Shown here in pieces: positions 9,214-63,033 of a DNA stretch of 64,000 nt. The translations under genes and the position numbers were made by a program. Source of the stretch: Anaerolineales bacterium (GTDB lineage: Bacteria > Chloroflexota > Anaerolineae > Anaerolineales > E44-bin32); assembly GCA_034430425.1 (NCBI GenBank), contig DAOUEK010000007.1, positions 1,090 through 65,089 of the forward strand, in the 5' to 3' direction. Positions within the stretch are counted from its first letter, which is position 1. Each line of letters begins with the position of its first letter. The notes under the pieces were generated by a model. That model was given only the letters and a program-made list of their open reading frames with translations, was not told the DNA's origin and ran no database searches.

Positions 9214-10812
9214 ATGATCACCGCCAGAGAACTGCTGAAACAAGGCAAGCGCGATGAAATATGGGAGATGTATTGTGGATTTCTCGATTTGCGGCTTCCT
9301 GAATTTATAGAAATCCAACGGGAATTGCTGCTCGAACAAATTCAATTGCTCAGTCAGTGTGAGTTGGGGAGAAAATTACTCGGCAACCAAATCCCCCAAA
9401 GCGTAGCCGCTTTTCGCGAGAGCGTACCCTTGACCACATATGAAGATTACGAACCGTATCTATCGGAAAAGAATGAAGACGTTATGCCGAGCGAGATATT
9501 CGTTTGGGCGCGCACATCTGGAAAAACTGGCGGAGATACGTTCAAATGGGTTCCGTATTCGCGCAGTATGTATGAGCAGTTCGGTCGCCGGGTAATAAGT
9601 GCCATGCTCGTCGGCTCATGCAAGAACAAAGGTGAAGTACGACTCGAAAACGGAGATATTCTGCTGATGACCACAGCACCCCCTCCCTATATCTCCGCTT
9701 TTGTAAGTCGTTCAGCAGAGGAGCAAGCACCGGTGAGATTCATTCCATCACTCGCAGAGGGCGAAAAAATGGATTTCCAGGATCGCATCGAGAAGGGCTT
9801 TGAACTCGCCATCGTGGAAGGCATGGACTATTTCTACGGTTTGGCGAGTTTATTGGTGAAAATCGGCGAGCGCTTCGAACATGGTTCGGGCAGCATCTCA
9901 TTCAGCCGCAGCATGCTCAAACCCAACGTGCTCCTACGCCTTATAACTGGATTCCTCAAAGGGAAATTCAACCGCAGAGCGCTGCGGCCAAGTGACATCT
10001 GGAAACTCAAGGGAATCATGACCGGCGGAACCGATACCGATATTTACAAGGACCGTATTGAAAAATATTGGGGAATAAAACCACTCGAGGGTTATGGCTC
10101 GACGGAGGGCTTTGCCCTTGCCATGCAATTGTGGAACTTCAAAGGAATGACCCTCTATCCCGACACCAATTTCTACGAGTTCATCCCCTACGAAGAACAC
10201 AGCAAGAACAAAAAGGACCCTTCCTATACCCCAAAAACTATTCTCCTGGACGAACTACAACCCGGCATTTACGAGCTGGTCTTTACCAATTTCCACGGCG
10301 GAATCTTCACTCGCTATCGGATATTTGATTTAATCGAAGTGATTTCCCTGCGCGACGATGAACTCGATATCGATATTCCACAAATCCGATTCTACTCACG
10401 CGCTGACGACGTGATCGACCTCGCCGGAATGGTCCGTCTAACCGAAAAAACGATCTGGTACGCCATGGAATCCTCAGGTGTTCACTACGAAGATTGGACG
10501 GCCAGAAAAGAAGAGTTGAATGGTGAACCACTCCTGCATATTTACTTCGAAGAAAGTCGTCCCAACAACCGATCGTTGGAGGAGATCAAATCATCCATCA
10601 ACGAGGAACTCATGAAAGTAAGCAGTGAATATGCGGATCTGATAACCATGCTCGGTGGTGATCGCTTGAAATTAACCAGGCTGCCAACGGGCGCATTCGC
10701 CCACTATATGGAAGAACAAAAACAAGCCGGCGTCGATATGGGCATTCTCAAACCATCACGCATGCAGCCAGGCGAAGAGGCGATTCGCCGACTGATGCAA
10801 AGCATAGGATAA
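9214..10812 (+). CDS. GH3-family (ANL adenylate-forming) acyl-amido synthetase-like protein
   Basis: PLTTYEDY, TSGKTGG..KWVP, YGSTEG, FYEFIP, YELVFTN..G..RYRIFD motifs typical of the GH3 family. Confidence 0.85.
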   Translation: MITARELLKQGKRDEIWEMYCGFLDLRLPEFIEIQRELLLEQIQLLSQCELGRKLLGNQIPQSVAAFRESVPLTTYEDYEPYLSEKNEDVMPSEIFVWARTSGKTGGDTFKWVPYSRSMYEQFGRRVISAMLVGSCKNKGEVRLENGDILLMTTAPPPYISAFVSRSAEEQAPVRFIPSLAEGEKMDFQDRIEKGFELAIVEGMDYFYGLASLLVKIGERFEHGSGSISFSRSMLKPNVLLRLITGFLKGKFNRRALRPSDIWKLKGIMTGGTDTDIYKDRIEKYWGIKPLEGYGSTEGFALAMQLWNFKGMTLYPDTNFYEFIPYEEHSKNKKDPSYTPKTILLDELQPGIYELVFTNFHGGIFTRYRIFDLIEVISLRDDELDIDIPQIRFYSRADDVIDLAGMVRLTEKTIWYAMESSGVHYEDWTARKEELNGEPLLHIYFEESRPNNRSLEEIKSSINEELMKVSSEYADLITMLGGDRLKLTRLPTGAFAHYMEEQKQAGVDMGILKPSRMQPGEEAIRRLMQSIG

Positions 10813-10822
10813 TATTCGAGAT

Positions 10823-13498
10823 ATGTATTGGGGAATTAACACCGTCATTCCTCTGCTTGCCGCGCTGGCCTACGGCGCATTACTCACCATCGTTAGTCGC
10901 GCCAGGCCATTAACCAATGCCAGACGCGCATTCCGCGTTTACCTGCTGGCCATGTTCTTCTGGTCATTTGGCTCGTTCGTTAGCCACAGCGGCTTTGGCA
11001 ACACCTCCCACTGGGCGCGCCTGTTGTCCACAGCCGCGATTACTGCGCCGCTCACCATTTTCTACTTCGTCGAAAACACCCTGGATATTACGCACAAATG
11101 GGACCACTGGGCTTACCTCGTGGGTATTATCAATGCCGCACTCGCTCTCTTTACGAATCTCGTAGCGCCTTCGGCCGATATCTTAAACGGGGATTTGACG
11201 ATTGCACGCGGCTCGCTGGTCTATGTCGTAGCCATTCCAGGGTATGGATTGTTCATATACAGCCTGGTCATGCTTATCCAACGTTTTCGACAGTCCACAG
11301 ATCCTATCGAACACAACCGACTGCGCTATCTGATCTCCGGCACGACAATCGTGATCCTTACAACACTGGTCAACTTCACCGATCTGGCCAAATACCCAAT
11401 TGATATCGCAGCAAATCTCATCAACGCGATGCTCATTTCGTACGCCATCATCCGCCACGAATTGCTGGACATCAACATCGTCATCCGCAGAGGATTGTCG
11501 TACAGCACATTGATTCTCATCCTGGCCGCCACTTATGTTCTTCCCGTCATTTTCTATGATGTCCTCCATATTGAACTCGAGGTCAGCCAAACTGCGACCA
11601 GATTTACACTATCGTTCATCATTGCCTCCCTTGTTGCCATTGCCTCACACGCCCTCTACGGCAGGATTCGAGAACGCATCGATCGGTTTTTTTTTCGTGA
11701 ACGCTATGATGCCTACAAAGTCATCCAAGAACTGGGGGAGCAAATCACAGGCACACTTGATTTCGATCAAATCGTCTCCTCAATGCTGGATCGCCTCGTC
11801 GAAACCCTGCATCCAAAATGGGTTGACTTATTGCTCAAGGACCCGTCGACGGGTGATTTCCACCCAACAGCGTCAAGAGGTCTGGATGAAACGCTATCCG
11901 AATTTCACATGCGTGCAGATCACCCGATCTGCCGTTGGTTAGGTCGAGAAAACAGGATCTTAACCGCGCAGCAGTTACGTATCCATGCGTATTTCACCGG
12001 TATTTGGAATTTAGAAAAGGAGCAGCTTGAAAGACTCTCGCCCAATCTTTTCGTCGCCTTGCGTGTAAAAGACGGACTTAGCGGAATCTTGCTGATCGGG
12101 CCAAAGAAATCCGATGAGACGTACAGCCTCGAAGATATCGATCTCTATATAACCTATGCCAATCAGGTCTCTGTCGCTTTAGACAACGCTCATCTTTTTA
12201 AAGCGATCAATGCGCGTCTGGCCGAACAAATCGCCCTGCTCGAGATCGGCATCAGCCTGGCGCGCGCCTCCAATCTGGACGACATCCTGCAGCTGGTCGT
12301 CAAACACGCCTGTCCCACAGATACACCTACCGCCAAAGCGACCATTCACCTCATCGACCACGACAGCCAGCGTCTGCTGCCGCGCGCCGTTTCCCAATCG
12401 AGCGGTGAACCCGCCCAGGCCGTAGGCTTCGATCCCCGTCAAGGTATCGCCGGACGCGCCGTTCAAGAAAAGCAACTCATCTATGTGCCGGATGTGAACA
12501 AGGCACCCGATTTTGTCAACACGCAGGAGAATTTCAAGTCCCTGGTTGTAGTACCGCTCATCATCGAGGACATTCCGGAAGGCACGCTCAGTGTGACCAG
12601 CCCCCATATCGATGCCTTCGATGAAGACTTGATCCGTCAATTAACCTCTCTCGGCAACCAGGCCGCAATCGCCTTGCGCAAGGCCCAGATCACCGACAGC
12701 TTGCGAAAATCAAACGCCGAATTGGAACAACGCTCGAAAGAACTGGAAGCCAGCATCGAGGAGTTGAAGTCCACACAGCGGCAACTCGTTCAGGCCAGCA
12801 AATTGGCTTCCATGGGTACGCTTACCGCAGGAATAGCACATGAAATCAACAACCCCCTGGCCGGCATCAAACTCTTCGCGCAAAACACCAGACGTGCCCA
12901 AAACGAAGGTCGTCTCGAAACCGAGAAAATGCTTGAAAACATGGAAAAAATCAGCGCACTCGTTGACAAAGCTGCAAAGATCATCGAACACCTGCGCACC
13001 TTTTCCCGACAAGCCTCCGGCGACATGAAGTTGATCGGCGTAAATAAAGCCGTTGAGGACTCACTCAGTATGCTTCTCGAGCAATTGAAACTGCAGAACA
13101 TCGAAGTCCTTTTACAACTTGAAGAAAACCTTCCTCAAGTGCGCGGCGATATCAATCAGATCGAACAAGTCGTACTCAACCTGATCACCAACGCCCGTGA
13201 CTCTCTCGATAAAATTGAAGACAAGAAAATCTCGCTGCGCACATACCAAGACGACGAGTCGGTCGTCATTGAAGTCACTGACTCTGGGAGTGGAATCTCG
13301 CCTGATATTCTGGAGAACGTGTTCGATCCATTCTTCACTACCAAACCCGTCGATAAAGGAACAGGTTTGGGCTTATCGATCAGTCACGGGATCGTAGAAC
13401 TTCATGGCGGAGAAATCGAAGTTGAAAGTGAACCTGACAAAGGGTCCACATTCCGGATTAAATTACCCGCCGCGGAAGATGTAACAGGAAACGATTGA
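10823..13498 (+). CDS. Membrane sensor histidine kinase (N-terminal 7TM, two GAF domains, HisKA, HATPase; NtrB-like)
   Basis: Hydrophobic N-terminal third, GAF regions, [39 protein letters not shown]. Confidence 0.92.
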
Positions 13499-23794: not shown

Positions 23795-23862
23795 ACTCGT
23801 TGTAGAATCGATTTATAAAGACGATTACACAAGGATTTGTTGAAGCTTACTAGGTGGTAGAA

Positions 23863-24630
23863 ATGACAAAAATCATTGCAATCGCCGGCAAAGGCGGCAC
23901 GGGGAAAACAACGCTCGCTGCGCTGCTCATTCAAACATTGAGTCAACGCCTGCCCGGTCCGCTTCTGGCGATCGATGCAGACCCGGCCACGAATTTGCAT
24001 ATGGCACTCGGAGTGCCCAGGCCGGAAACGGTTGGAGAAATCCGTGAATTGATGTCCGAAACAGCGCAGGCCGGTGAGCTCGGCGTTTCGATCAGCCGCC
24101 ATGATTATCTAAATCGCGAGGTGCGCCTGGCCATCGAAGAGGGAGAAACCATCGATTTGCTCGCCATGGGGCGGCCGGAAGGCCAGGGTTGTTACTGCGC
24201 CGTTAACCACATGCTGCGGCAAATCGTGGACGAGATCGGCCGCACATACGACACCATCATCATCGACAACGAGGCCGGTATGGAACACATCAGCCGACGC
24301 ACGACTCGCGATGTCGATCTTCTCTTGCTCATCACGGATCCCACCTTGCGCGGTGTGCGCACTGCAGCTGAAATGGCACAATTGGCAGAAACGCTTGAAG
24401 TAAACGTCAAACGCACACAATTGATCGTAAATCGGGTTAAAGGGGAAATGCCGCAGCCATTGCAGGATGCCATCGATGAGTTAGGTCTCGAGATCGCGGC
24501 ACTCATTCCTGCTGACGAGAATATCAACCGACTCGACGCACTGGGGATGCCGCTCGTGCAACTTAATGGAGATTCACCTGCCGCCCAAGCAGTAGAGCAA
24601 TTAATCGAACGGATTGTAAGCGAGCTCTAA
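23863..24630 (+). CDS. acsF: CooC/AcsF-type Ni-insertion ATPase
   Basis: IAGKGGTGKT, IDADP, GRPEGQGCYCAVN, DNEAGMEHISR; sits inside the acs cluster. Confidence 0.88.
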   Translation: MTKIIAIAGKGGTGKTTLAALLIQTLSQRLPGPLLAIDADPATNLHMALGVPRPETVGEIRELMSETAQAGELGVSISRHDYLNREVRLAIEEGETIDLLAMGRPEGQGCYCAVNHMLRQIVDEIGRTYDTIIIDNEAGMEHISRRTTRDVDLLLLITDPTLRGVRTAAEMAQLAETLEVNVKRTQLIVNRVKGEMPQPLQDAIDELGLEIAALIPADENINRLDALGMPLVQLNGDSPAAQAVEQLIERIVSEL

Positions 24631-52657: not shown

Positions 52658-53414
52658 GCAACCATATATTTTGATCGTGGACGACGATCCGGATATCGTC
52701 GAGGGGATTACCGCCGTGCTGGAAACGCGAGACTACCGCCTTGCCAGCGCTGGCGATGGCATTGCCTGCATGAAACTTATCCGGGAGAAGACCCCAGATT
52801 TATTGATCCTGGACATGATGATGCCGCGCATGGACGGTTTCGCCGTCATCCGCGAGCTTCGCGGCGATCCGAAGTATGTTGGTCTGCCCATCATTATTCT
52901 CACCACGGTCATTGAAGATGCCGCCTACCGCCGCTATGAACTTGAGACAGGGCTGGCTATGGATGTGCAAGCCTATATCGAGAAACCGGCACCGCCGGAT
53001 GTGTTGCTGCGCCACGTCACAGCGGTAGTCGATCTGCCCTATATTATTGTCGCCGATGACGACCCGGATATCGTTGCCGCGCTTACCACGGTCCTTGAAT
53101 CCAGGCCCTATCGGGTCAGCTCGGCCGCCAACGGTCAGAGCTGCATCGAACTGGTGCGCAAGCGCAAACCCGATCTACTCATCCTGGATTTACTCATGCC
53201 GCACATGGATGGTTTTGCCGTGATTCGCGAGCTGCGCAGCGAACCCCAATTTACCGATCTACCCATCATCATCCTCACTACCGTGGTTGAAGATGCCAGC
53301 CGCCGGCGTTACGAACTCGAGACGGGTCAGGACATGGCTGTTACACGATACATGCAGAAACCCGTGCCACCCAAGATGCTGCTCAAGCAAGTGAATGAGG
53401 TGTTGAAAAAATGA
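52650..53414 (+). CDS. Tandem REC-REC response regulator without output domain
   Basis: Two near-identical receivers (VDDDPDI..LLILDMMMP..EKP and ADDDPDI..LLILDLLMP..QKP); GAGG-rich RBS before ATG 52650. Confidence 0.9.
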   Translation: MREQPYILIVDDDPDIVEGITAVLETRDYRLASAGDGIACMKLIREKTPDLLILDMMMPRMDGFAVIRELRGDPKYVGLPIIILTTVIEDAAYRRYELETGLAMDVQAYIEKPAPPDVLLRHVTAVVDLPYIIVADDDPDIVAALTTVLESRPYRVSSAANGQSCIELVRKRKPDLLILDLLMPHMDGFAVIRELRSEPQFTDLPIIILTTVVEDASRRRYELETGQDMAVTRYMQKPVPPKMLLKQVNEVLKK

Positions 53415-56400
53415 GCGCGGACAAGGTCACCGGCGCAGTGATGGTCGTAGGCGGCGGTGTCGCCGGCATGCAGGCCAGTCTCGATCTGGCCGAGCAGGGA
53501 TTCCGGGTATTCCTGGTGGAAAGCCAGTCCGCCATCGGCGGTCACATGGCCAAACTGGACAAGACATTCCCCACCAACGACTGTGCCATGTGCATCATCA
53601 GCCCCAAGCTGGTTGAAACCGGTCGTCACCTCAACATCGACTTGATGGTTGACAGTGAAGTCGATAAGGTCGATGGGCAAGCGGGAGACTTCACCGTTAC
53701 CGTGCGGCGTAAACCGCGCTACATCGACATCGAGAAATGCGTTGGATGCGGAGATTGCGCTGAAGTGTGTCCGGTCGTGCTCACCGATAGGTTCAACGAA
53801 GGTTTGGCACCGCGCAAGGCGGTCTACAAACTCTATCCACAGGCGGTCCCCAATGCCTACACGATCGACAAGTTGGGCATTGCCCCTTGCCGCAACGCCT
53901 GTCCCGTCGATCAACGCGCCGAGGGTTACATCGCATTCATTGCAGAAGGCCGCTACCGCGAGGCCTACCGTGTGATCAAGGAAGACAATCCCTTCCCCAG
54001 TGTGTGTGGACGCACCTGCCATCACCCTTGCGAAGGCCACTGCGCTCGCGCCCTAGTCGACGAGCCGGTGAGCATCATGGCCCTGAAACGCTTCGTGATG
54101 GATTACGCCCTGGCCTACGGGCGCGAGAAAGTCGAACCCGTACCCCGCACACGACCGGAGTGGATCGCCGTGGTCGGTGCTGGGCCAGCCGGATTAACCG
54201 CCGCCCACGACCTGGTGAGAATGGGGTACGGCGTGACGGTCTACGAAGCGCTTCCCGTCGCCGGCGGGATGATGCGCGTCGGCATCCCCGCTCATCGTCT
54301 GCCCAAGGGCGTTTTACAGGACGACATCGACGACATCCTCGCGCTGGGCGTGGTGCTGAAAACCAACTCGCCGATTTCCGATCCCACGAAGTTGCTTAAG
54401 GAAGGTTACGACGCCGTTTGTCTGGCGACGGGGATTTCCACCCGCGATCATTCGTTGACCGTGGAAGGCGAGGACGCCGAGGGTGTACTCTCCGCAGCGA
54501 CCTTCCTGCGCAAAGTCAACCTGGGAGAACCGATCACCGTCGGCGAGCGCGTAGCTGTGATCGGCGGCGGCGTGACCGCCCTCGACGCAGCCACCGTTGC
54601 CCGACGTCTGGGCGCGGAAGAAGTTATCCTGGCCTACGACCGCCCACGCGGCGAGCTACCCGCCTACCAGTGGGAAATGGACGCCGTCGAAGCTGAAGGC
54701 ATCCGCCAGCTCGAACACACAACACTGACGCGCATCCTGACCAAAAACGACAGGGTGGTCGGTGTCGAACTGGCCCGCACCGGCCGCGGTACGACTAAAG
54801 ACAAACATGGCCGCCGACGCCCCAAGATCGAAGCCGGCAGCGAATTCACCCTCGAAGTCGATACCGTGATCGGTACCATCGGTCAGCAGTCCGACTTGAA
54901 CTACCTGCACCCTGCGTTCGAGGATCTAAACGGCGACAGCAGAACGCTGGCTTGTGAAGACGCCCCCGGATTGTTCGTCGTCGGTGGGCGCAAGACCGGC
55001 GCCAGCTTCATCGTCGAAGCCATTGCCCTGGGACATCGCGTGGCGAAATCGATTCATCATTATCTACAGGGCACATTCGACAAAATGGAAAAAATCACAC
55101 CACCGGTGGTCAAAGTCACACGCGAGGACATCGAGCGCCGCGTTAAAACGGGGGAGATCGAACTGCTGCCGCGCAACGAATCCAGGCTGCTGCACATGGA
55201 CGAGCGCGTGACAAGTTTTCGTGAAGTGGTTTTGGGGTTGACCGAACGCCAGGCGCGCGCCGAAGCCAAGCGCTGCCTGCAGTGCGGGAACTGTTCGGAA
55301 TGCCTGGCCTGCGTCTATGCTTGTGGCGCGGACGCCATCGATCACGAGATGGTCGAGACCATCCAGGATGTAAAGGTCGGCGCCATCATCCTGGCTCCCG
55401 GTTACCAGACCTATCAGGCTGAACTCTCCGCGGAATACGGTTTGGGCCGCTATCCCAATGTGATCACCGCACTGCAGCTCGAGCGTTTGCTCTCCGCCTC
55501 CGGACCGACCACAGGGCACGTAGTGCGCCCTTCGGACGGGCGCCCGGCGAAGAAAATCGCCTTCCTGCAGTGTGTCGGCTCCCGAGATCAGAATCACGAT
55601 TACTGCTCGGCCGTATGCTGCATGTACGCCACCAAGGAAGCCATTCTGGTCCGAGACCATGATCCCGAAGCCGAAGTGGATATCTTCATGATGGACATCC
55701 GCGCCTTCAGTAAAGGCTACGATGCCTATTACCAGCGTGCCCGGGAACAATTCGACATCCAGTACACCCGCTGCCGAGCATCTGAATTCAAGGAAGCCCC
55801 GGACACCAAGAACATTACGATCCGATATACAGAAGAACAAGGTGTCGGGGTTCGAAACCAGCCTGATTCCGATTTGCCCGAAACACGCATAACCGAAGCG
55901 GAATACGACCTCGTCGTGCTGTCGGTGGGCATGGAAATTTCACAATCCGTTAAAGAGCTCGGCCAGAGATTGGGCATCGAGCTCGACGACTACGGTTTTT
56001 GCAAAACGGCTTTCTTCAATCCCGTTGAAACCTCACAGCCGGGAATCTACGCTGCGGGACCTTTCCGTGAGCCTAAAGACATTCCCGAATCCGTGGTCGA
56101 CGCCAGCGGCGCAGCGGGTCAAGCTGCAACGCTGCTCGCCTCGGCTCGTGACCAACTGACACGCCAGGCCAGTTATCCGCCCGAAAAAACGGTCGGCGAA
56201 CCACGTGTAGGCGTCTTCGTTTGTCACTGCGGCTCCAACATCGCCGGTTACATGGATATCGAAGCCGTCACGGATTACGCCGCCAATCTGCCGCATGTGG
56301 TCCATGCCGACCACATGCTTTACACGTGCTCGCAGGACAGCACGGCGCAGATCCAGGCTTGCATCGTCGAACACGATTTGAACCGCGTCGTGGTGGCTTC

Positions 56401-57973
56401 CTGCACACCGCGCACGCACGGCTCGCTCTTCCGTGACGTGGTGCGTCAGGCGGGTTTGAACGAGTACCTGTTCACAATGGCCAACATCCGCAACCACTGC
56501 TCGTGGGTACACTCGCATGAACCCGATATCGCCACAGAAAAGGCGCAGGATTTAATCCGCATGTCCGTCTCCCGCGTGGTGGGCCTCGAGCCGCTGCACA
56601 CGCAGCCGGTTCCGGTGTGCCAGCAGGCGCTGGTCATCGGCGGCGGTGTGGCAGGCATGAACGCCGCGCTTGCGCTGGCAGAACAGGGTTTCCCCGTCCA
56701 CCTGGTCGAGAAAGAAAAAACCCTGGGCGGCAATTTGCGCGGGGTCTATTTCAATCATGATCCTGGTGATTCGAACGCCGGGCGCGATCCCCAGAATTAT
56801 TTACGGACGTTGATCAAAGAGATTGCAACTCATCCTGCGATAACGACGCACCTATCGAGCCAGGTGCTTCACACCACAGGCTTCGTCGGCAATTTCATCA
56901 CCATGCTGCAGAAGGAAAACGGCAGCCAGGCGGAAATCCAGCACGGTGCCACAATCGTCGCCACGGGCGGCCAGGAGTATCGCGGGGAGGAATATGGTTT
57001 TGCGGAAAGCCCGTGCGTGGTCACTGGACTGCAGTTCGAGGCTCTGTTGGCCAAAACTGGCCGCAAACGGGTGAAACTCGACGAGAAAACGAGTGCGACC
57101 TGGAAGTTGTTAGATAAAAAACCGCCGGATCAGGTGCTGATGATCCAATGCATCGGCCCGGCGGAGGAGACATGCGCCCGCACATGCTGCACCACCGCCT
57201 TGAAACAGGCTCTGCAGCTAAAAGCCCTGCATCCCGAGGCGCGCGTCGTCATGCTGCATCGCGACATGCGTACGTATGGATTCAAGGAGCGTCTTTACAA
57301 GCAGGCGCTCGAGCAAGGCGTGCTTTTCGTGCGCTACGACCCGACGCATAAACCCCAGGTATCTATCAAGGCTGACGGCCAAGTCCACGTGAACGTGCAG
57401 GATCCCGTACTCGGTACGCCGTTGAACTTCAAACCCGACTTACTCGTGCTTTCCACACCTCTCATCCCGGCGAAAGAAAATCAGACGTTGGCCACGAAGC
57501 TAAAGGTGCCCGTCGATTTGGATGGTTGGTTCCTGGAGGCGCACGTCAAACTACGGCCGGTGGATTTCTCCAACGAGGGCATTTTCCTGGCTGGGGCTGC
57601 CCACTACCCCAAACTGCTCGACGAGAGTATCGTACAAGCCCAGGCGGCCGCTTCGCGGGCTGCAACCATCCTGTCCCGCCAGACCTTAGATGCCGGCGGT
57701 TCCGTCGCCCGCGTTGATCCTGAAGCCTGCGTTGGCTGCCTGACGTGCGTGCGCATCTGCCCATATGGTGTGCCGCAGATGCAAATTAATCTTACCGGGG
57801 TTGGTGGCATCGTGGGCGCGGCCTACATCGAACCCGCTGTTTGCCAGGGATGCGGGACATGCGTTGCCGAGTGCCCCGCCTACGCCATCGAACTGCTGCA
57901 TTATCGCCACGACCAGTTGGAGGATGAGGTGGGTGCCTTATTCGAAACGAAGATTGAAGTACGTGAAGGGTGA
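53411..57973 (+). CDS. hdrA: HdrL-type large HdrA, copy 2
   Basis: Same domain order as copy 1: LDKTFPTNDCAMC, CRNACP..CGRTCHHPCEGHCAR, GAGPAGL, CSAVCCMYATK, terminal ferredoxin motifs. Confidence 0.93.
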   Translation: MSADKVTGAVMVVGGGVAGMQASLDLAEQGFRVFLVESQSAIGGHMAKLDKTFPTNDCAMCIISPKLVETGRHLNIDLMVDSEVDKVDGQAGDFTVTVRRKPRYIDIEKCVGCGDCAEVCPVVLTDRFNEGLAPRKAVYKLYPQAVPNAYTIDKLGIAPCRNACPVDQRAEGYIAFIAEGRYREAYRVIKEDNPFPSVCGRTCHHPCEGHCARALVDEPVSIMALKRFVMDYALAYGREKVEPVPRTRPEWIAVVGAGPAGLTAAHDLVRMGYGVTVYEALPVAGGMMRVGIPAHRLPKGVLQDDIDDILALGVVLKTNSPISDPTKLLKEGYDAVCLATGISTRDHSLTVEGEDAEGVLSAATFLRKVNLGEPITVGERVAVIGGGVTALDAATVARRLGAEEVILAYDRPRGELPAYQWEMDAVEAEGIRQLEHTTLTRILTKNDRVVGVELARTGRGTTKDKHGRRRPKIEAGSEFTLEVDTVIGTIGQQSDLNYLHPAFEDLNGDSRTLACEDAPGLFVVGGRKTGASFIVEAIALGHRVAKSIHHYLQGTFDKMEKITPPVVKVTREDIERRVKTGEIELLPRNESRLLHMDERVTSFREVVLGLTERQARAEAKRCLQCGNCSECLACVYACGADAIDHEMVETIQDVKVGAIILAPGYQTYQAELSAEYGLGRYPNVITALQLERLLSASGPTTGHVVRPSDGRPAKKIAFLQCVGSRDQNHDYCSAVCCMYATKEAILVRDHDPEAEVDIFMMDIRAFSKGYDAYYQRAREQFDIQYTRCRASEFKEAPDTKNITIRYTEEQGVGVRNQPDSDLPETRITEAEYDLVVLSVGMEISQSVKELGQRLGIELDDYGFCKTAFFNPVETSQPGIYAAGPFREPKDIPESVVDASGAAGQAATLLASARDQLTRQASYPPEKTVGEPRVGVFVCHCGSNIAGYMDIEAVTDYAANLPHVVHADHMLYTCSQDSTAQIQACIVEHDLNRVVVASCTPRTHGSLFRDVVRQAGLNEYLFTMANIRNHCSWVHSHEPDIATEKAQDLIRMSVSRVVGLEPLHTQPVPVCQQALVIGGGVAGMNAALALAEQGFPVHLVEKEKTLGGNLRGVYFNHDPGDSNAGRDPQNYLRTLIKEIATHPAITTHLSSQVLHTTGFVGNFITMLQKENGSQAEIQHGATIVATGGQEYRGEEYGFAESPCVVTGLQFEALLAKTGRKRVKLDEKTSATWKLLDKKPPDQVLMIQCIGPAEETCARTCCTTALKQALQLKALHPEARVVMLHRDMRTYGFKERLYKQALEQGVLFVRYDPTHKPQVSIKADGQVHVNVQDPVLGTPLNFKPDLLVLSTPLIPAKENQTLATKLKVPVDLDGWFLEAHVKLRPVDFSNEGIFLAGAAHYPKLLDESIVQAQAAASRAATILSRQTLDAGGSVARVDPEACVGCLTCVRICPYGVPQMQINLTGVGGIVGAAYIEPAVCQGCGTCVAECPAYAIELLHYRHDQLEDEVGALFETKIEVREG

Positions 57974-57981
57974 AGGCGAAA

Positions 57982-58422
57982 ATGGCCGAAAATGGAAAAG
58001 ACCTGCAGATCGTCGCCTACTGCTGCCATCATTGCGCTTACGCTGCCGCAGATCTGGCTGGTGTGTTACGCATCCAGTATCCGGCGCAGACCAAGGTCGT
58101 CGAAATTCCCTGCTCCGGACGTTTGGATGTGCTCGAGGTGCTGCATGCCTTCGAACGCGGTGCTGACGGTGTAATGGTCGCCGGTTGACTGCCCGGTGAC
58201 TGTCATTACCTGGAAGGTAATGTTAACGCCAAACGTCGCGTGGAGAAACTCAAACAACTATTGGACTCGATCGGGCTGGAACCCGAGCGCGTGGAGATGT
58301 TCAATCTCTCCTCGGCAATGGCTGCACAATTCGCCGAAACGGTGAGGAACATGGTAGCGCAGATTCAAAGTGTTGGCCCGAGTCCCTTGCGGCTCGCTGC
58401 TGAGGGAATAACCGAACCATAA
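57982..58422 (+). CDS. mvhD: MvhD-family subunit, selenocysteine form, copy 2 (in-frame UGA 58186-58188)
   Basis: YCCHHCAY..IPCSGR..GADGVMVAG-UGA-LPGDCHYLEGN continues in frame into ORF 58240-58422. Confidence 0.93.
58201..58225 (+). other. Putative bacterial SECIS element (TGTCATTACC-TGGAA-GGTAATGTTA)
   Basis: 7-bp perfect stem CATTACC/GGTAATG; 21 nt identical to copy 1; same 12-nt offset from the UGA. Confidence 0.8.
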
Positions 58423-58485: not shown

Positions 58486-59172
58486 ATGATCATTGCAGAA
58501 CAAAAACCACTGGAGGAGATCAAGGCTTTGATCGCGGATGCCGAAAATGTATTGGTCGTTGGCTGCGGCACCTGCGTGACGGTATGCTTTGCCGGCGGGG
58601 AGAAGGAGGCCGGCATCCTGGCCAGCAGCCTGCGCATGTCGACCAAACTCGACGGCGGCCCCAAAGCTGTGGAGCATGTTACCGTGCAGCGCCAGTGCGA
58701 ATGGGAGTATATCGACCCCATCGGGGATCGTGTCGCTGAGGCAGATATGGTGCTTTCGATTGGATGCGGTATCGGTGTGCAGGCGCTCGCCGAACGCTTC
58801 CCGGATGCCATTGTCGTTCCCGGGTTAAATACCTCCTTCTTGGGCTTGCCTACGGAACAAGGTGTTTGGGAAGAACGCTGCGCCGCTTGCGGCGAGTGCA
58901 TCCTCGGATTGACGGGTGGAATCTGCCCCATTGCTCGCTGCGCCAAACAGCTGCTCAATGGACCTTGCGGCGGGTCGCAAAACGGTGTTTGTGAAATCGA
59001 CCCGGATACGCCCTGCGCCTGGCAGTTGATCTACGACAAACTGAAATCACAAAATCGTCTGCACCTGCTGACGGAAATTCAAGCGCCGAAGAACTGGTCC
59101 AGCAGCCGCGACGGCGGTCCTCGAAAAATCACCCGTCAGGATTTACGTCTGGCGGCGGAAGAATCTGAGTAG
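58486..59172 (+). CDS. metV: Methylene-THF reductase Fe-S/Zn subunit MetV
   Basis: GCGTCVTVC, RQCE, CGIGVQ, CAACGECIL..GICPIARCAKQLLNGPCGG..CE..CAW. Confidence 0.93.
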   Translation: MIIAEQKPLEEIKALIADAENVLVVGCGTCVTVCFAGGEKEAGILASSLRMSTKLDGGPKAVEHVTVQRQCEWEYIDPIGDRVAEADMVLSIGCGIGVQALAERFPDAIVVPGLNTSFLGLPTEQGVWEERCAACGECILGLTGGICPIARCAKQLLNGPCGGSQNGVCEIDPDTPCAWQLIYDKLKSQNRLHLLTEIQAPKNWSSSRDGGPRKITRQDLRLAAEESE

Positions 59173-59190: not shown

Positions 59191-60180
59191 ATGACAAAAA
59201 CATCGAGCAATGGATACAAATCCGGCTCTCGCCTGGAACGCCTGCTGCGCACCGGCGAATTCGTGGTCACCGGCGAGTTGGGCCCGCCGCAGGGTGCTGG
59301 CGGGGACGTCATCCGTGAGAAAGCTGTCCTGTTAAAAGGCGTAGTCGATGCGGTAAATATCACCGATAATCAGACTGCCATCGTACGCATGTCCTCGATT
59401 GGCGCCGGTACGATCACCGTGCAGGAGGGTGTGGAACCGATCATCCAGATGACCTGCCGCGACCGCAACCGTCTGGCGATCCAATCCGATCTACTGGGCG
59501 CCTACGCCCTGGGCATGCGCAACGTGCTCTGCCTGACCGGCGATCACCAATCCTTCGGCAACCACCCTACCGCCAAGAACGTCCATGATCTGGACTCGGT
59601 GACGTTGATCCAGATGGTAGTGAAGATGCGAGATGAAGGCAAGTTTGAATGTGGAGATGAAATGAAAGGGATCGAACCGCGCTTCTTCGTCGGCGCAGCG
59701 GCCAATCCCTTCGGCGATCCTTTCGAATTCCGCCCACTCCGTCTGGCAAAGAAAGTCGCCGCCGGCGTGGATTTCATCCAGACACAGTTGATCTACAACA
59801 TCGAACGCTTCGCCGAATACATGCAGAAAGTGCGCGAACTCGGCCTGCACGAGAAGGTATACATTTTGGCCGGCTTGGGTCCGCTGAAGTCTCCGGGCAT
59901 GGCGCGTTACATGCGCGATCAGGTGCCGGGCCTGGACGTACCCGATATCTACGTCGACCGCATGATCGAAGCCGCCAAGGGCATCGATAAAGAAGACAAG
60001 AAAGCCCGTTCCCAGGCCTGGCGTGAGGAAGGCATGAAAATCACCATCGAGCAGATCAAGCAGATGCGCGAGATCGAAGGCGTCGCCGGTGTGCACGTGA
60101 TGGCAATTGAATGGGAAGAGGCAGTCAAACCGATCGTCGAGGGCGCCGGATTGCTGCCGCGTCCGGAACCGGCGGCGTAA
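59191..60180 (+). CDS. metF: Methylenetetrahydrofolate reductase MetF
   Basis: ELGPP, NITDNQ, QMTCRDRNRLAIQSDLLGA, LTGDH, KKVAAGVDFIQTQ. Confidence 0.95.
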   Translation: MTKTSSNGYKSGSRLERLLRTGEFVVTGELGPPQGAGGDVIREKAVLLKGVVDAVNITDNQTAIVRMSSIGAGTITVQEGVEPIIQMTCRDRNRLAIQSDLLGAYALGMRNVLCLTGDHQSFGNHPTAKNVHDLDSVTLIQMVVKMRDEGKFECGDEMKGIEPRFFVGAAANPFGDPFEFRPLRLAKKVAAGVDFIQTQLIYNIERFAEYMQKVRELGLHEKVYILAGLGPLKSPGMARYMRDQVPGLDVPDIYVDRMIEAAKGIDKEDKKARSQAWREEGMKITIEQIKQMREIEGVAGVHVMAIEWEEAVKPIVEGAGLLPRPEPAA

Positions 60181-60190
60181 GGAGATGTCT

Positions 60191-61585
60191 ATGGAGACAA
60201 AACTCAGCACCGATCTGGCCGAACGCATCCGGGAAGCCACCGGTGAGAACGTGTTCCTCTGTTATCACTGCGTGAAGTGCACCTCCGGTTGCCCCCTGAT
60301 GGAGCATTTCGACCTGGCGCCCAACCAGGTGATGCGCGCCGCTCAGTTGGGTATGGAAGACATGATCTTCGAGAGCAAATCGCCCTGGCTGTGCGCCTCC
60401 TGCCAGACCTGCACCACTCGCTGCCCGCAGGGCATCGACATCGCCCGTGTGATGGACTTTATCGTCGGCGAGGCGATGGCCAAAGGCATCAAACCCAAGG
60501 TGCCCGAAGTCGCCCTGTTTAACAAGGTCTTTTTACGCGACATCGACATACTGGGCCGCTCCTACGAGCTGGGGTTGATGGTCGAGATGAACATACGCAC
60601 CAGGCAGCCCTTCAAGGACGTCGGCCTGGGGCTAGACATGATCAAGCACGGCAAGATCGCCTTCCTGCCCTCCGTGATCCGCAAACGCAAGCCGAAGGCG
60701 GAAAAACCACCTCCAGAACGGGAGTCTAAAGAGGTTGGTTATTATCCCGGCTGTTCGTTACATTCCTTGGCCAGGGAGTTTAACCTCTCGGCATTGGCGA
60801 CGCTGGAAGCGCTCGATCGCAAGCCCGTGGAGCCGAAAAACTGGATTTGCTGCGGTTCTTCGCCCGCCCACCGCGTGGACCACGAGCTTGCGGTGCAGAT
60901 GCCGCTCGAAAGCCTGGCACTTTATGAAATGGAAGGCGTTAGCGAGGTTACCCTGCCCTGCGCCATGTGCTTCAACCGCTTCAGGGCCGCGGCGAGAGAA
61001 GTGCGCCTCGATCCCGAATTGAAACAGGAAATGGACCAGGAGTTGGGCTATGCGTATCAAGACAGCCTGGCGATATCATCGCTGCTGGATTACGTCGTCG
61101 AGAACATTGGCCTGGAAGCCGTAGCCGAGAAGGTCAAAAAGCCGCTCGCAGGGTTGAAAATTGCCTGCTATTACGGCTGCCTGCTAACCCGTCCACCCGA
61201 AATCACCGGATCGAAAGAACCGGAATACCCCATGTCCATGGACCGTTTGATGAAGGCGCTGGGGGCAGAGCCAATCGACTGGGACCGTAAAGTGTCCTGC
61301 TGCGGCGCGTCCCTGTCCCTTACGGCGACCGGCATCGTACTCGAAATGAGCGCTGATATCATCGAAAACGCACACGCCCGCGGCGCCGATCTCGTGGCCG
61401 TGGCCTGCCCGATGTGCCACGCCAATATCGACGGACGCCAGGTACAAATGGACATCACACAACCGGTCCCGGCGCTGTATTTTACCCAGCTGATGGCCCT
61501 GGCCTTCGGCATGCCGGAGGAAGCTGCGTTGAAATTCAACATGGTTGATGCGCGACCACTGCTGAAGGAACGAGGTTTCCTATAG
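60191..61585 (+). CDS. Fused HdrC-HdrB heterodisulfide-reductase-like subunit
   Basis: HdrC motifs CYHCVKCTSGCP and CASCQTCTTRCP, followed by two CCG domains (YYPGC..CCG..CAMC; YYGC..CCG..CPMC). AAGGAG RBS. Confidence 0.92.
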   Translation: METKLSTDLAERIREATGENVFLCYHCVKCTSGCPLMEHFDLAPNQVMRAAQLGMEDMIFESKSPWLCASCQTCTTRCPQGIDIARVMDFIVGEAMAKGIKPKVPEVALFNKVFLRDIDILGRSYELGLMVEMNIRTRQPFKDVGLGLDMIKHGKIAFLPSVIRKRKPKAEKPPPERESKEVGYYPGCSLHSLAREFNLSALATLEALDRKPVEPKNWICCGSSPAHRVDHELAVQMPLESLALYEMEGVSEVTLPCAMCFNRFRAAAREVRLDPELKQEMDQELGYAYQDSLAISSLLDYVVENIGLEAVAEKVKKPLAGLKIACYYGCLLTRPPEITGSKEPEYPMSMDRLMKALGAEPIDWDRKVSCCGASLSLTATGIVLEMSADIIENAHARGADLVAVACPMCHANIDGRQVQMDITQPVPALYFTQLMALAFGMPEEAALKFNMVDARPLLKERGFL

Positions 61586-61611: not shown

Positions 61612-62235
61612 TTGCGTAAAGCGCATACTAAAATGATTCGGGCGGCAAGGGAACGCAAGAGTCAAATGCACTCACGACTATGCGAGTTGAGAACCCGTCA
61701 TCCGCTGCAAGGTCGAGAGCTGCCCCCGATTCGCGAGACCGTTGGCCATTGGGTCGACCGTTGGCAGTTGAACCACTTCATCCAGCGCATATCACCGTTT
61801 CAATCCGAAGCGGTCGAGCGCGGTCCGCTGCCGTTCATCATTCTGGCCGAGACCGGCCAGGACGTGCGCCACTGCGCCAACTGCCGCAACTGCGAGGACT
61901 GGACAACTCCCGGTATGGATCTCAACTTTGGAGAGATTCTGCGCGCCGCGGCGCGGAACGACCCCATCGCGCTGCAGAATCAGTCCCTGTGGAACTGCGA
62001 CGATGTGTTCACAAACACGATCCATTGCCATCAAGGCTTCGACATCCCGGCCGTGATCCGTACGCTGCGTCGTGAGGCGAAACTGCGCGGCTACCACAAG
62101 CGCATTTATCGGCTGCGCGCCCTGCACTCGCGGATCCCCAATTGGAGACCACCGATACGATCTCCCCGAATCGACCGAGAACGGATAGAATCCCTGCGTA
62201 GGAAGCTGGAAAACATCAACCGCTTCAAATCATAG
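61612..62235 (+). CDS. Degenerate HdrC-like protein retaining ligands for only one [4Fe-4S] cluster
   Basis: CANCRNC..MDLNFGEILR..SLWNC..IHCHQGFDIPAVIRTLRREA aligns with HdrC. Start codon uncertain. Confidence 0.7.
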   Translation: MRKAHTKMIRAARERKSQMHSRLCELRTRHPLQGRELPPIRETVGHWVDRWQLNHFIQRISPFQSEAVERGPLPFIILAETGQDVRHCANCRNCEDWTTPGMDLNFGEILRAAARNDPIALQNQSLWNCDDVFTNTIHCHQGFDIPAVIRTLRREAKLRGYHKRIYRLRALHSRIPNWRPPIRSPRIDRERIESLRRKLENINRFKS

Positions 62236-62253: not shown

Positions 62254-63033
62254 ATGAAACTCGCCATCACCGGAAAAGGTGGTGTGGGCAAAACCACGCT
62301 CACTTCCCTACTAGCCTATGCCTACGCCGAAAAAGGCTTTCAAGTTCTGGCGATCGACGCCGATCCCGCCCCCTGTCTGGCCGAAGCGCTGGCCTTCCCC
62401 AAAAAACTACTGGAGGGATTGACCCCCATCGCCCGCATGGACGACCTGATCTACGAACGCACCGGCGCCAAGCCGGGTGCAACCGGAGGCTACTTCAAGC
62501 TCAACCCGCGCGTGGACGACATCCCGGATCAATTCTCGGCCGTGCATCGCGGCATCCGTTTACTGGAGATGGGCGCCGTAGAGATGGGTGGATCGGGCTG
62601 CATCTGTCCCGAGAGCGCCATCCTGCGCGCCCTGACCACCCACATTCTCCTGCAGCGCAACGAAGTCATCCTGCTCGACATGTACGCCGGCGTGGAACAT
62701 CTCGGCCGCGCCACGGCGGCCGCCGTCGACGCCATGCTGATTGTGGTCGAACCGACCAAACGCAGCCTGACCACCGCCGAACAGATCAAATCGCTGGCGG
62801 AGGACATCAAACTGAAGAACCTATACATCGTGGGCAGCAAGGTACAGGGGGAAGAAGATCGGGCCTTCATCGAAAGCAACAGCCCCGGGCTGCCGGTGAT
62901 CGGGCACCTGCCGCACGATCCGCATGTGCGCCAGGCCGATCGGGACGGCGCGGCGCTCTATGATCTGGCACCTGAGATGGCGAAAGCCACACAGGCCATT
63001 ATGCAGGCGTTGGAAGCGAAGCGCGAGGACTAA
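62254..63033 (+). CDS. cooC: CO dehydrogenase Ni-insertion ATPase CooC (second paralog)
   Basis: GKGGVGKTT, IDADP, KLNPRVDDIP, GSGCICPES, AGVEHLGRAT. Confidence 0.92.
   Translation: MKLAITGKGGVGKTTLTSLLAYAYAEKGFQVLAIDADPAPCLAEALAFPKKLLEGLTPIARMDDLIYERTGAKPGATGGYFKLNPRVDDIPDQFSAVHRGIRLLEMGAVEMGGSGCICPESAILRALTTHILLQRNEVILLDMYAGVEHLGRATAAAVDAMLIVVEPTKRSLTTAEQIKSLAEDIKLKNLYIVGSKVQGEEDRAFIESNSPGLPVIGHLPHDPHVRQADRDGAALYDLAPEMAKATQAIMQALEAKRED

Follow-up and report, generated by a model that had tools for sequence, protein, structure and literature searches.

The window, by which we mean the whole 64,000-nucleotide stretch of DNA that was analysed, carries a tightly packed operon in the order hdrL, mvhD, metV, metF, an HdrCB fusion gene, a small HdrC-like gene and cooC (Table 1). 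The small gene, which is the subject of this work, is predicted to encode a protein with a single [4Fe-4S] cluster and is referred to below as the one-cluster gene. An acs cluster located upstream in the window encodes CODH, ACS, AcsD, AcsC, RACo, a second CooC paralog and AcsE. The ATPase encoded at the end of the operon is a true CooC, as phmmer matched it to CooC1 (3kje) with an E-value of 3.9e-40 and the CxC motif was aligned. In most relatives, both CooC genes are found side by side downstream of the one-cluster gene. HdrL contains two HdrA modules but a single HdrCB is encoded alongside. The mvhD gene contains an in-frame TGA, and in related contigs gene callers split it into pieces of 68 aa and 41-60 aa. 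No promoter-like or terminator-like site was found on the + strand from hdrCB through the one-cluster gene to cooC, and a search for Rfam families or RNA elements at the locus gave no match.

Table 1. Coordinates of the features discussed, numbered from the first nucleotide of the window
Feature	Coordinates	Strand	Description
hdrL	53411-57973	+	1520 aa; two HdrA modules in tandem, the first interrupted by an NfnB/GltD-like NAD(P)H domain
mvhD	57970-58422	+	One in-frame TGA, reads as selenocysteine: VAGULPGDCHY, at a conserved Cys position
metV	58486-59172	+	Methylene-THF reductase module (with metF); Pfam DUF5981, MTHFR
metF	59191-60180	+	Methylene-THF reductase module (with metV); Pfam DUF5981, MTHFR
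HdrCB fusion (HdrD-like)	60185..61585	+	Two-cluster HdrC domain and CCG; Pfam Fer4_17, Fer4_8, CCG; NCBIfam HdrB, HdrC
One-cluster (predicted) HdrC-like CDS	61633..62235	+	200 aa plus stop; probable start; conserved ATG, dN/dS
N-terminal extension	61633..61818	+	Genus-specific; helical in the AF2 model (helices 2-21, 33-62); net charge +4
HdrC-like ferredoxin-type core	61819..62097	+	Family-wide conservation; pLDDT 84-96
Motif 1, C-x2-C-x2-C	61873..61893	+	Three predicted ligands of the retained [4Fe-4S] site; E-D-W replaces the fourth Cys-Pro
Cys of WNC	61996..61998	+	First position of former motif 2; outside the conserved ligand set
Last motif-2 Cys (HCHQG)	62026..62028	+	Predicted fourth ligand in ferredoxin-type cross-pairing; 131/131 members
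C-terminal extension	62098..62232	+	Genus-specific; net charge +11; two predicted helices
CooC-type nickel-insertion ATPase	62254..63033	+	18 nt past the one-cluster gene; GCICPE (CxC); last in the operon
Second CooC paralog	23854-24630	+	34% identical to the CooC at 62254; between RACo and AcsE

The one-cluster gene lies in an open reading frame at 61612..62235 (+) that would encode 207 aa from the TTG at 61612. This TTG was ruled out as the start because it is not conserved within the genus, being replaced in two same-genus orthologs (L013 and L019); the gene probably starts instead at the ATG at 61633, which is conserved across six orthologs of the window's genus. Two overlapping ORFs (61680..62075 on the + strand and 61792..62127 on the - strand) were set aside, as conservation tracks the frame of 61612..62235. 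The two terminal extensions are confined to the window's genus, and the relatives, at 95-130 aa, lack them. The original prediction had described both as basic, which is true of the C-terminal extension; the N-terminal one is only mildly so.

Relationship to HdrC and conservation of four cysteines

By BLASTP, the protein aligned with the HdrC part of the neighbouring HdrCB (residues 45-132) with 30% identity over 89 residues (E 7e-9). Two HdrC family models were considered, TIGR03290 and NF041779; on the former the protein scored 18.9 bits (E 1e-3), below the family threshold of 160 bits, and a 98-aa relative scored 22 bits. When a profile built from 13 homologs was searched against the PDB, the significant matches were HdrC chains only, with 5odc_C matched over residues 31-120 (E 5.5e-5), so that the resemblance to HdrC proposed from the sequence was recovered by profile search. 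At E <= 1, neither the ORF nor a short relative matched any Pfam family, including Fer4_8 (PF13183) and Fer4_17 (PF13534), the latter being matched by the neighbouring HdrCB at 5e-10, and the one-cluster family has no Pfam or NCBIfam model of its own. An AF2 model computed from 131 sequences had a mean pLDDT of 82 and was most confident in the core (Table 1), an earlier run with 13 sequences (pLDDT 56) having been too poor for use. The top four Foldseek matches of this model in the PDB were HdrC chains (7bkb_C and 5odc_C/I, probability 0.89-1.00), although these matches were weak (E 0.1-0.4, TM 0.35-0.43). The relatives detectable by sequence, profile and fold are thus HdrC proteins only, and the similarity is real but weak.

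The protein does not have the two CxxCxxCxxxCP motifs of HdrC; what it keeps is CxxCxxC and, in motif 2, the final Cys. As first described, motif 1 is a CxxCxxC that lacks the fourth Cys-Pro. In the numbering of the ORF at 61612..62235, the Cys residues are C88, C91 and C94 (nt 61873-61893), C129 in WNC and C139 in HCHQG. The first three and the last of these (C81, C84, C87 and C132 when numbered from the ATG at 61633) are invariant in all 131 aligned family members, despite a mean column identity of only 34%, and the remaining HdrC ligand positions are not Cys across this alignment. The WNC position is Asp in 110 of the 131 members and Cys in 13, and several members of the window's own taxonomic family lack the Cys, which therefore lies outside the selected set. 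The ligand pattern is conserved in the relatives, and the earlier count of exactly four ligands stands in the sense that four invariant Cys form one set, while the domain itself contains five.

A similar picture was obtained with 63 best-hit representatives, in which CxxCxxC and the last Cys were present and both middle motif-2 Cys were gone; the first motif-2 Cys was found in 27 of them and lost in 36, and only 4 had a further Cys, a fourth one, close to motif 1. As these 63 had been selected by their Cys pattern, the pattern was re-checked on a second set, the 131-member one, which was drawn in a different manner, from a second search that was seeded with a divergent subgroup and gave 349 clusters at 90% identity.

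In SdhB/FrdB, a [4Fe-4S] cluster is held by the first three Cys of motif 1 together with the last Cys of motif 2, and the other Cys serve the cluster that is closest to the membrane or the CCG partner. By this cross-pairing, the Cys retained here would be the full ligand set of one [4Fe-4S] cluster, which the protein is predicted to bind. By analogy, the retained cluster should be the one farther from HdrB, and the lost site the one that faces HdrB. The spacing from the conserved Trp to the last Cys is the same in the one-cluster family as in HdrC, which indicates that the second site was lost through substitution and not through deletion. Two short members of the clade, P0037 and P0048, retain both full motifs, which suggests a two-cluster ancestor inside the family. 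The sequences suggest that the loss of the second site was a directed step within an existing family.

One member, from genome G025 (L029:4045-4368), reads CINYELYYQ in place of CxxCxxC and has thus lost two of the four Cys. The metV, metF, hdrCB, cooC and ACS genes of this genome look intact despite the Cys loss in the small protein. Joint decay of the one-cluster gene and cooC in G025 was considered and rejected: the apparently split cooC is a run of N in the contig, and gives no support for a link with CooC.

The gene is under purifying selection in the window's genus. Six genus orthologs gave a dN/dS of 0.15-0.29 for the gene as a whole; by region, the values were 0.06-0.19 (core), 0.15-0.40 (N-terminal extension) and 0.09-0.33 (C-terminal extension). 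The genus orthologs are free of frameshifts and internal stop codons. A pseudogene or chance ORF was rejected on the basis of the dN/dS values, the intact orthologs and the invariant Cys, and the original prediction that the ligand pattern reflects selection and not random decay was borne out on the same grounds (dN/dS 0.06-0.4, four fixed Cys and intact orthologs).

A word-indexed search recovered 12 homologs with 50-84% identity, and an exhaustive profile search gave 320 representatives (50% identity), of which 67 had E <= 1e-10; their typical length was 95-130 aa. The family comprises about 63 clusters at 50% identity and more than 349 at 90%; the 200-aa long form is a single cluster in the 50%-identity set. 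All the named family members are from Anaerolineales or other Chloroflexota, and the contigs related to the window are labelled Anaerolineales or Anaerolineaceae. In the databases, members are named “heterodisulfide reductase subunit C” (JGI) or hypothetical proteins of Anaerolineales, Anaerolineae or Chloroflexi (NCBI). Papers that deal with the hdr-met operon of Chloroflexi or with the types of methylene-THF reductase make no mention of the gene, and no paper describing it was found. We conclude that the one-cluster HdrC-like proteins are a real, conserved and undescribed family of Anaerolineales Wood-Ljungdahl gene clusters.

Gene neighbourhoods in relatives

In the window's genus and taxonomic family, the one-cluster gene is always placed between hdrCB and cooC, with a MetV-MetF fusion gene instead of hdrCB in two loci. 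Every locus of this family that extends far enough has cooC immediately downstream; the stop codon of the one-cluster gene overlaps the start of cooC (ATGA) in six loci, and the two genes abut in L053. The usual layout in 80 metagenome loci is AcsE, a malic-enzyme-like protein, a TrxR-like protein, a MetV-MetF fusion, the one-cluster gene, CooC and CooC2, with neither HdrB nor HdrA, and HdrCB is encoded upstream in only 4 of the 80. The immediate upstream gene encodes MetF or the MetV-MetF fusion in 47 of the 62 informative metagenome loci (HdrCB in 2, others in 13), with metF-to-gene gaps as short as 7-10 nt, and the immediate downstream gene is cooC in 48 of 66. The gene was expected to follow hdrCB in relatives and its product to be a subunit of a MetVF-Hdr complex. 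The first of these holds within the window's genus and family, whereas most metagenome loci have the gene after the MetV-MetF fusion; as for the second, membership in an hdr-met operon stands in the genus, but the tie to Hdr is not kept in most of the metagenome loci, and the protein is no more than a possible subunit of that complex.

A recurrent Anaerolineales supercluster (L051, L052, L055-L100) has AcsC and RACo upstream of the array that runs from AcsE to CooC2, with a fusion protein of about 490 aa. Together with the TrxR-like protein encoded nearby, the MetV-MetF fusion may represent a kind of methylene-THF reductase that has not been described before.

The links with met genes and with cooC can each be broken. 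Eight loci have metVF and the one-cluster gene but no cooC (L105, L107, L114, L120, L123, L124, L126 and L131), and are followed by a formate transporter gene, a convergent gene or a GGDEF gene. Conversely, the gene is paired with cooC without metF at L037, L101/L104, L115 and L122, where the pair comes after panB, a DUF362 gene or a gene for an uncharacterised protein of 430 aa and precedes the genes for DUF1638 and RACo; the pair is also found away from met and hdr genes at G389, G328, G340, G333 and L127/L128. The genome of L037 (G055) has an hdrL-mvhD-metV-metF-hdrCB operon on a separate contig, without the one-cluster gene. In G436, the order is one-cluster gene, cooC and then metVF.

Several other features of these loci may be noted. 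A conserved protein of 430-440 aa is encoded upstream of the gene and CooC (L115:1039-2328, L104:48-1364 and L122:2648-3940); it had no Pfam, NCBIfam or PDB match, and its context (DUF362, DUF1638, RACo and AcsE) suggests corrinoid or C1 metabolism. Tandem duplicates of the one-cluster gene occur upstream of cooC (L127:271-621 and 947-1264; G278:C833:1596-2533; G115:C14:8779-9664). A DUF3786 protein is encoded at L107:5415-6023, after metVF, the one-cluster gene and the formate transporter gene, and likewise in other loci.

At the level of the order, we surveyed 201 genomes with a profile threshold of E <= 1e-16, which gave clean separation; a class-level search with a broad profile was unusable for presence and absence, because genuine HdrCB proteins were also matched (E ~1e-21). 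The one-cluster gene was present in 27 of the 201 genomes, MetV in 109 and a CooC ortholog in about 72, and all 27 carriers hold both MetV and CooC. Most MetV-positive or CooC-positive genomes of the order thus lack the gene, which is carried by 27 of the 109 and about 27 of the ~72, respectively. As genomes of the same lineage are not independent, these numbers characterise the sample and should not be read as statistical tests. In family f14 (G178, G429, G401, G212, G291 and G370), the gene ends an acs-metVF transcription unit and cooC lies on the opposite strand at a distance of 13-15 kb, or else on a separate contig, while in families f4, f9 and f10 the gene is beside cooC and apart from metVF. 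Among close relatives without the gene, metVF is directly followed by cooC in G387 and G407 and hdrCB by cooC in L046, and in L041 the place between hdrCB and cooC is filled by a gene for a DUF3786 protein (10554-11207). Since the met link and the cooC link are each breakable, the gene is an optional insert at the met/cooC junction of Wood-Ljungdahl clusters and not an Hdr-specific component.

Candidate partners of the one-cluster protein

We tentatively favour a role as an accessory, single-cluster electron-transfer adaptor of the methylene-THF reductase module, while giving it somewhat less than an even chance. Here, a small soluble protein of HdrC fold, optional in the Anaerolineales Wood-Ljungdahl cluster and carrying one [4Fe-4S] cluster on CxxCxxC and the last Cys of former motif 2, would dock on the MetV/MetF module and couple it to the donor that each organism has. 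In the window this donor would be HdrL-MvhD-HdrCB, and in most relatives the TrxR-like flavoprotein encoded beside the MetV-MetF fusion. The genus-specific basic helical extensions may add contacts, such as with the second half of HdrL, which has no HdrC. HdrL has two HdrA modules for one HdrCB and so might offer a second docking site, and it is a matter of speculation that the extensions exploit it. The partner and the direction of electron flow given here are, like the cluster itself, what we infer from the conserved gene, its four Cys and its genomic associations.

Three reasons led us to prefer the adaptor role: metF is found upstream more often than any other gene, a metVF unit can close with the one-cluster gene in the absence of cooC, and domains of the HdrC/SdhB type are normally fixed relay subunits and not diffusible carriers. 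Against it, only 27 of the order's 109 MetV-positive genomes carry this gene, and the close relatives in which metVF or hdrCB is directly followed by cooC indicate that the reductase does not need it. The gene also stays with cooC away from metF in several lineages and overlaps cooC at ATGA, and the G025 member has lost two of its four Cys. In addition, the MetVF enzymes purified from acetogens function without such a subunit (PMC8760232).

The downstream neighbour offers another partner that the original prediction, in assigning the protein to MetVF-Hdr alone, had left out of consideration although it is an equally good candidate. The protein could be a redox partner of CooC that poises or reduces CooC itself, the A-cluster of ACS or the still nickel-free C-cluster of CODH while nickel is inserted at the expense of ATP. 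This is the chief competitor of the adaptor role, and we regard it as rather unlikely, even if its contextual support is nearly equal to that of the adaptor. In vitro, a reductant is needed for nickel to be inserted into nickel-free CODH, and the ATPase next to the gene is a true CooC with its CxC motif. The constant downstream position of cooC in the window's family and its frequency in the metagenome loci, the overlapping or abutting codons, the presence of a CooC ortholog in all 27 carriers and the pairs that remain intact apart from met and hdr genes, or ahead of metVF in G436, all point in this direction. However, only about 27 of the ~72 genomes with a CooC ortholog have the gene, and family f14 and at least seven metagenome loci co-transcribe it with metVF while cooC is distant or off the contig. 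The protein is unlike CooT and CooJ, having no Pfam hit, and CooC is not known to have an Fe-S partner. The two genes may also be adjacent simply because the acs-met supercluster ends in a fixed order, metVF-x-cooC-cooC2. That the protein is the dedicated Fe-S redox partner of CooC or, equally, that it serves as adaptor in a fifth methylene-THF reductase type, composed of the TrxR-like flavoprotein, the one-cluster protein and the MetV-MetF fusion, is a still less likely proposal.

It is more doubtful again that the protein has no fixed partner and acts as a free-standing, ferredoxin-like one-electron carrier, or as a redox or oxygen sensor of the Wood-Ljungdahl regulon, whose basic tails in the window's genus might bind an acidic partner or nucleic acid. 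The small size (~100 aa), the single predicted cluster and the C-terminal tail of net charge +11 are compatible with such a function, as are the presence of the gene only in genomes with Wood-Ljungdahl genes (27 of the 201), the occurrence of tandem duplicates (L127, G278 and G115) and the fact that either neighbour may be missing. On the other side, HdrC/SdhB-type domains are normally fixed subunits, the place of the gene between two others is very stable, Pfam revealed no DNA-binding or Wbl-type domain, and the basic tails are missing from nearly all members. Finally, a decaying or non-functional relic of an hdrC gene that was duplicated in part, or a structural protein that binds no cluster, would agree with the dispensability of the gene in most relatives and with the G025 member that lacks two of the four Cys, but is highly improbable and largely refuted by dN/dS values well below 1 in all three regions, by genus orthologs free of frameshifts and internal stops, and by four Cys that are fixed over 131 sequences of 34% mean column identity in a family of dozens of clusters at 50% identity.

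Comparison with known systems and significance

The AF2 model suggests, with weak Foldseek scores, a helical ferredoxin-type fold like that of HdrC (TIGR03290; 5odc chain C, 7bkb chain C) and of the HdrC half of HdrD/HdrCB fusions. At the sequence level it has in common with HdrC the lead-in TGxxV..C, the first CxxCxxC, the Trp two residues before motif 2, an identical spacing and the subsequent helix LRxEAxxRG. Unlike HdrC, it lacks the Cys-Pro that completes motif 1 as well as the middle Cys of motif 2, leaving one ligand set, and most members are ~100 aa long, lack a C-terminal arm and have no HdrB or HdrA neighbour. The C-terminal domain of SdhB/FrdB belongs to the same superfamily as HdrC and follows the same cross-paired ligand logic. 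The one-cluster protein differs from SdhB/FrdB in having no [2Fe-2S] N-terminal domain and in that the partner-proximal cluster is deleted and not converted to [3Fe-4S]; no sequence match to SdhB/FrdB was obtained at the thresholds used.

Accessory electron-input subunits are known from the methylene-THF reductases of acetogens, namely RnfC2 in type III and HdrABC-MvhD in type IV, and the Moorella type IV complex (MetVF-HdrABC-MvhD) has six subunits, none of which is like the one-cluster protein (PMC8760232). Like RnfC2 and HdrABC-MvhD, the one-cluster protein is encoded directly beside metV/metF in a Wood-Ljungdahl cluster, a position that would suit an Fe-S relay linking MetV to a donor module. 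Its sequence is not related to that of RnfC2, it has no nucleotide-binding site, and it is optional among close relatives. CooT and CooJ are likewise small proteins encoded next to cooC, but the one-cluster protein shares no sequence similarity with them and has neither the His-rich tail nor the N-terminal Cys2 nickel site, its conserved residues being putative Fe-S ligands and not a nickel-chaperone motif. Searches of Pfam and NCBIfam gave no match besides HdrC, and a His-rich stretch was looked for in the sequence and was absent.

The label “heterodisulfide reductase subunit C” given to these proteins by JGI can inflate counts of Hdr complexes in metagenomes of subsurface Chloroflexota, and the family needs a model of its own. 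The in vivo electron source of the MetVF-type reductases and the second acceptor of the Hdr-linked type IV enzymes are open questions (PMC8760232). A conserved, unannotated gene that comes right after metF or metVF in many Wood-Ljungdahl clusters of Anaerolineales is an easily cloned candidate for a missing electron-transfer component. If, on the other hand, the protein proved to be a partner of CooC, a redox step would be added to nickel-cluster maturation, and the protein would be the first Fe-S component of CODH/ACS maturation.
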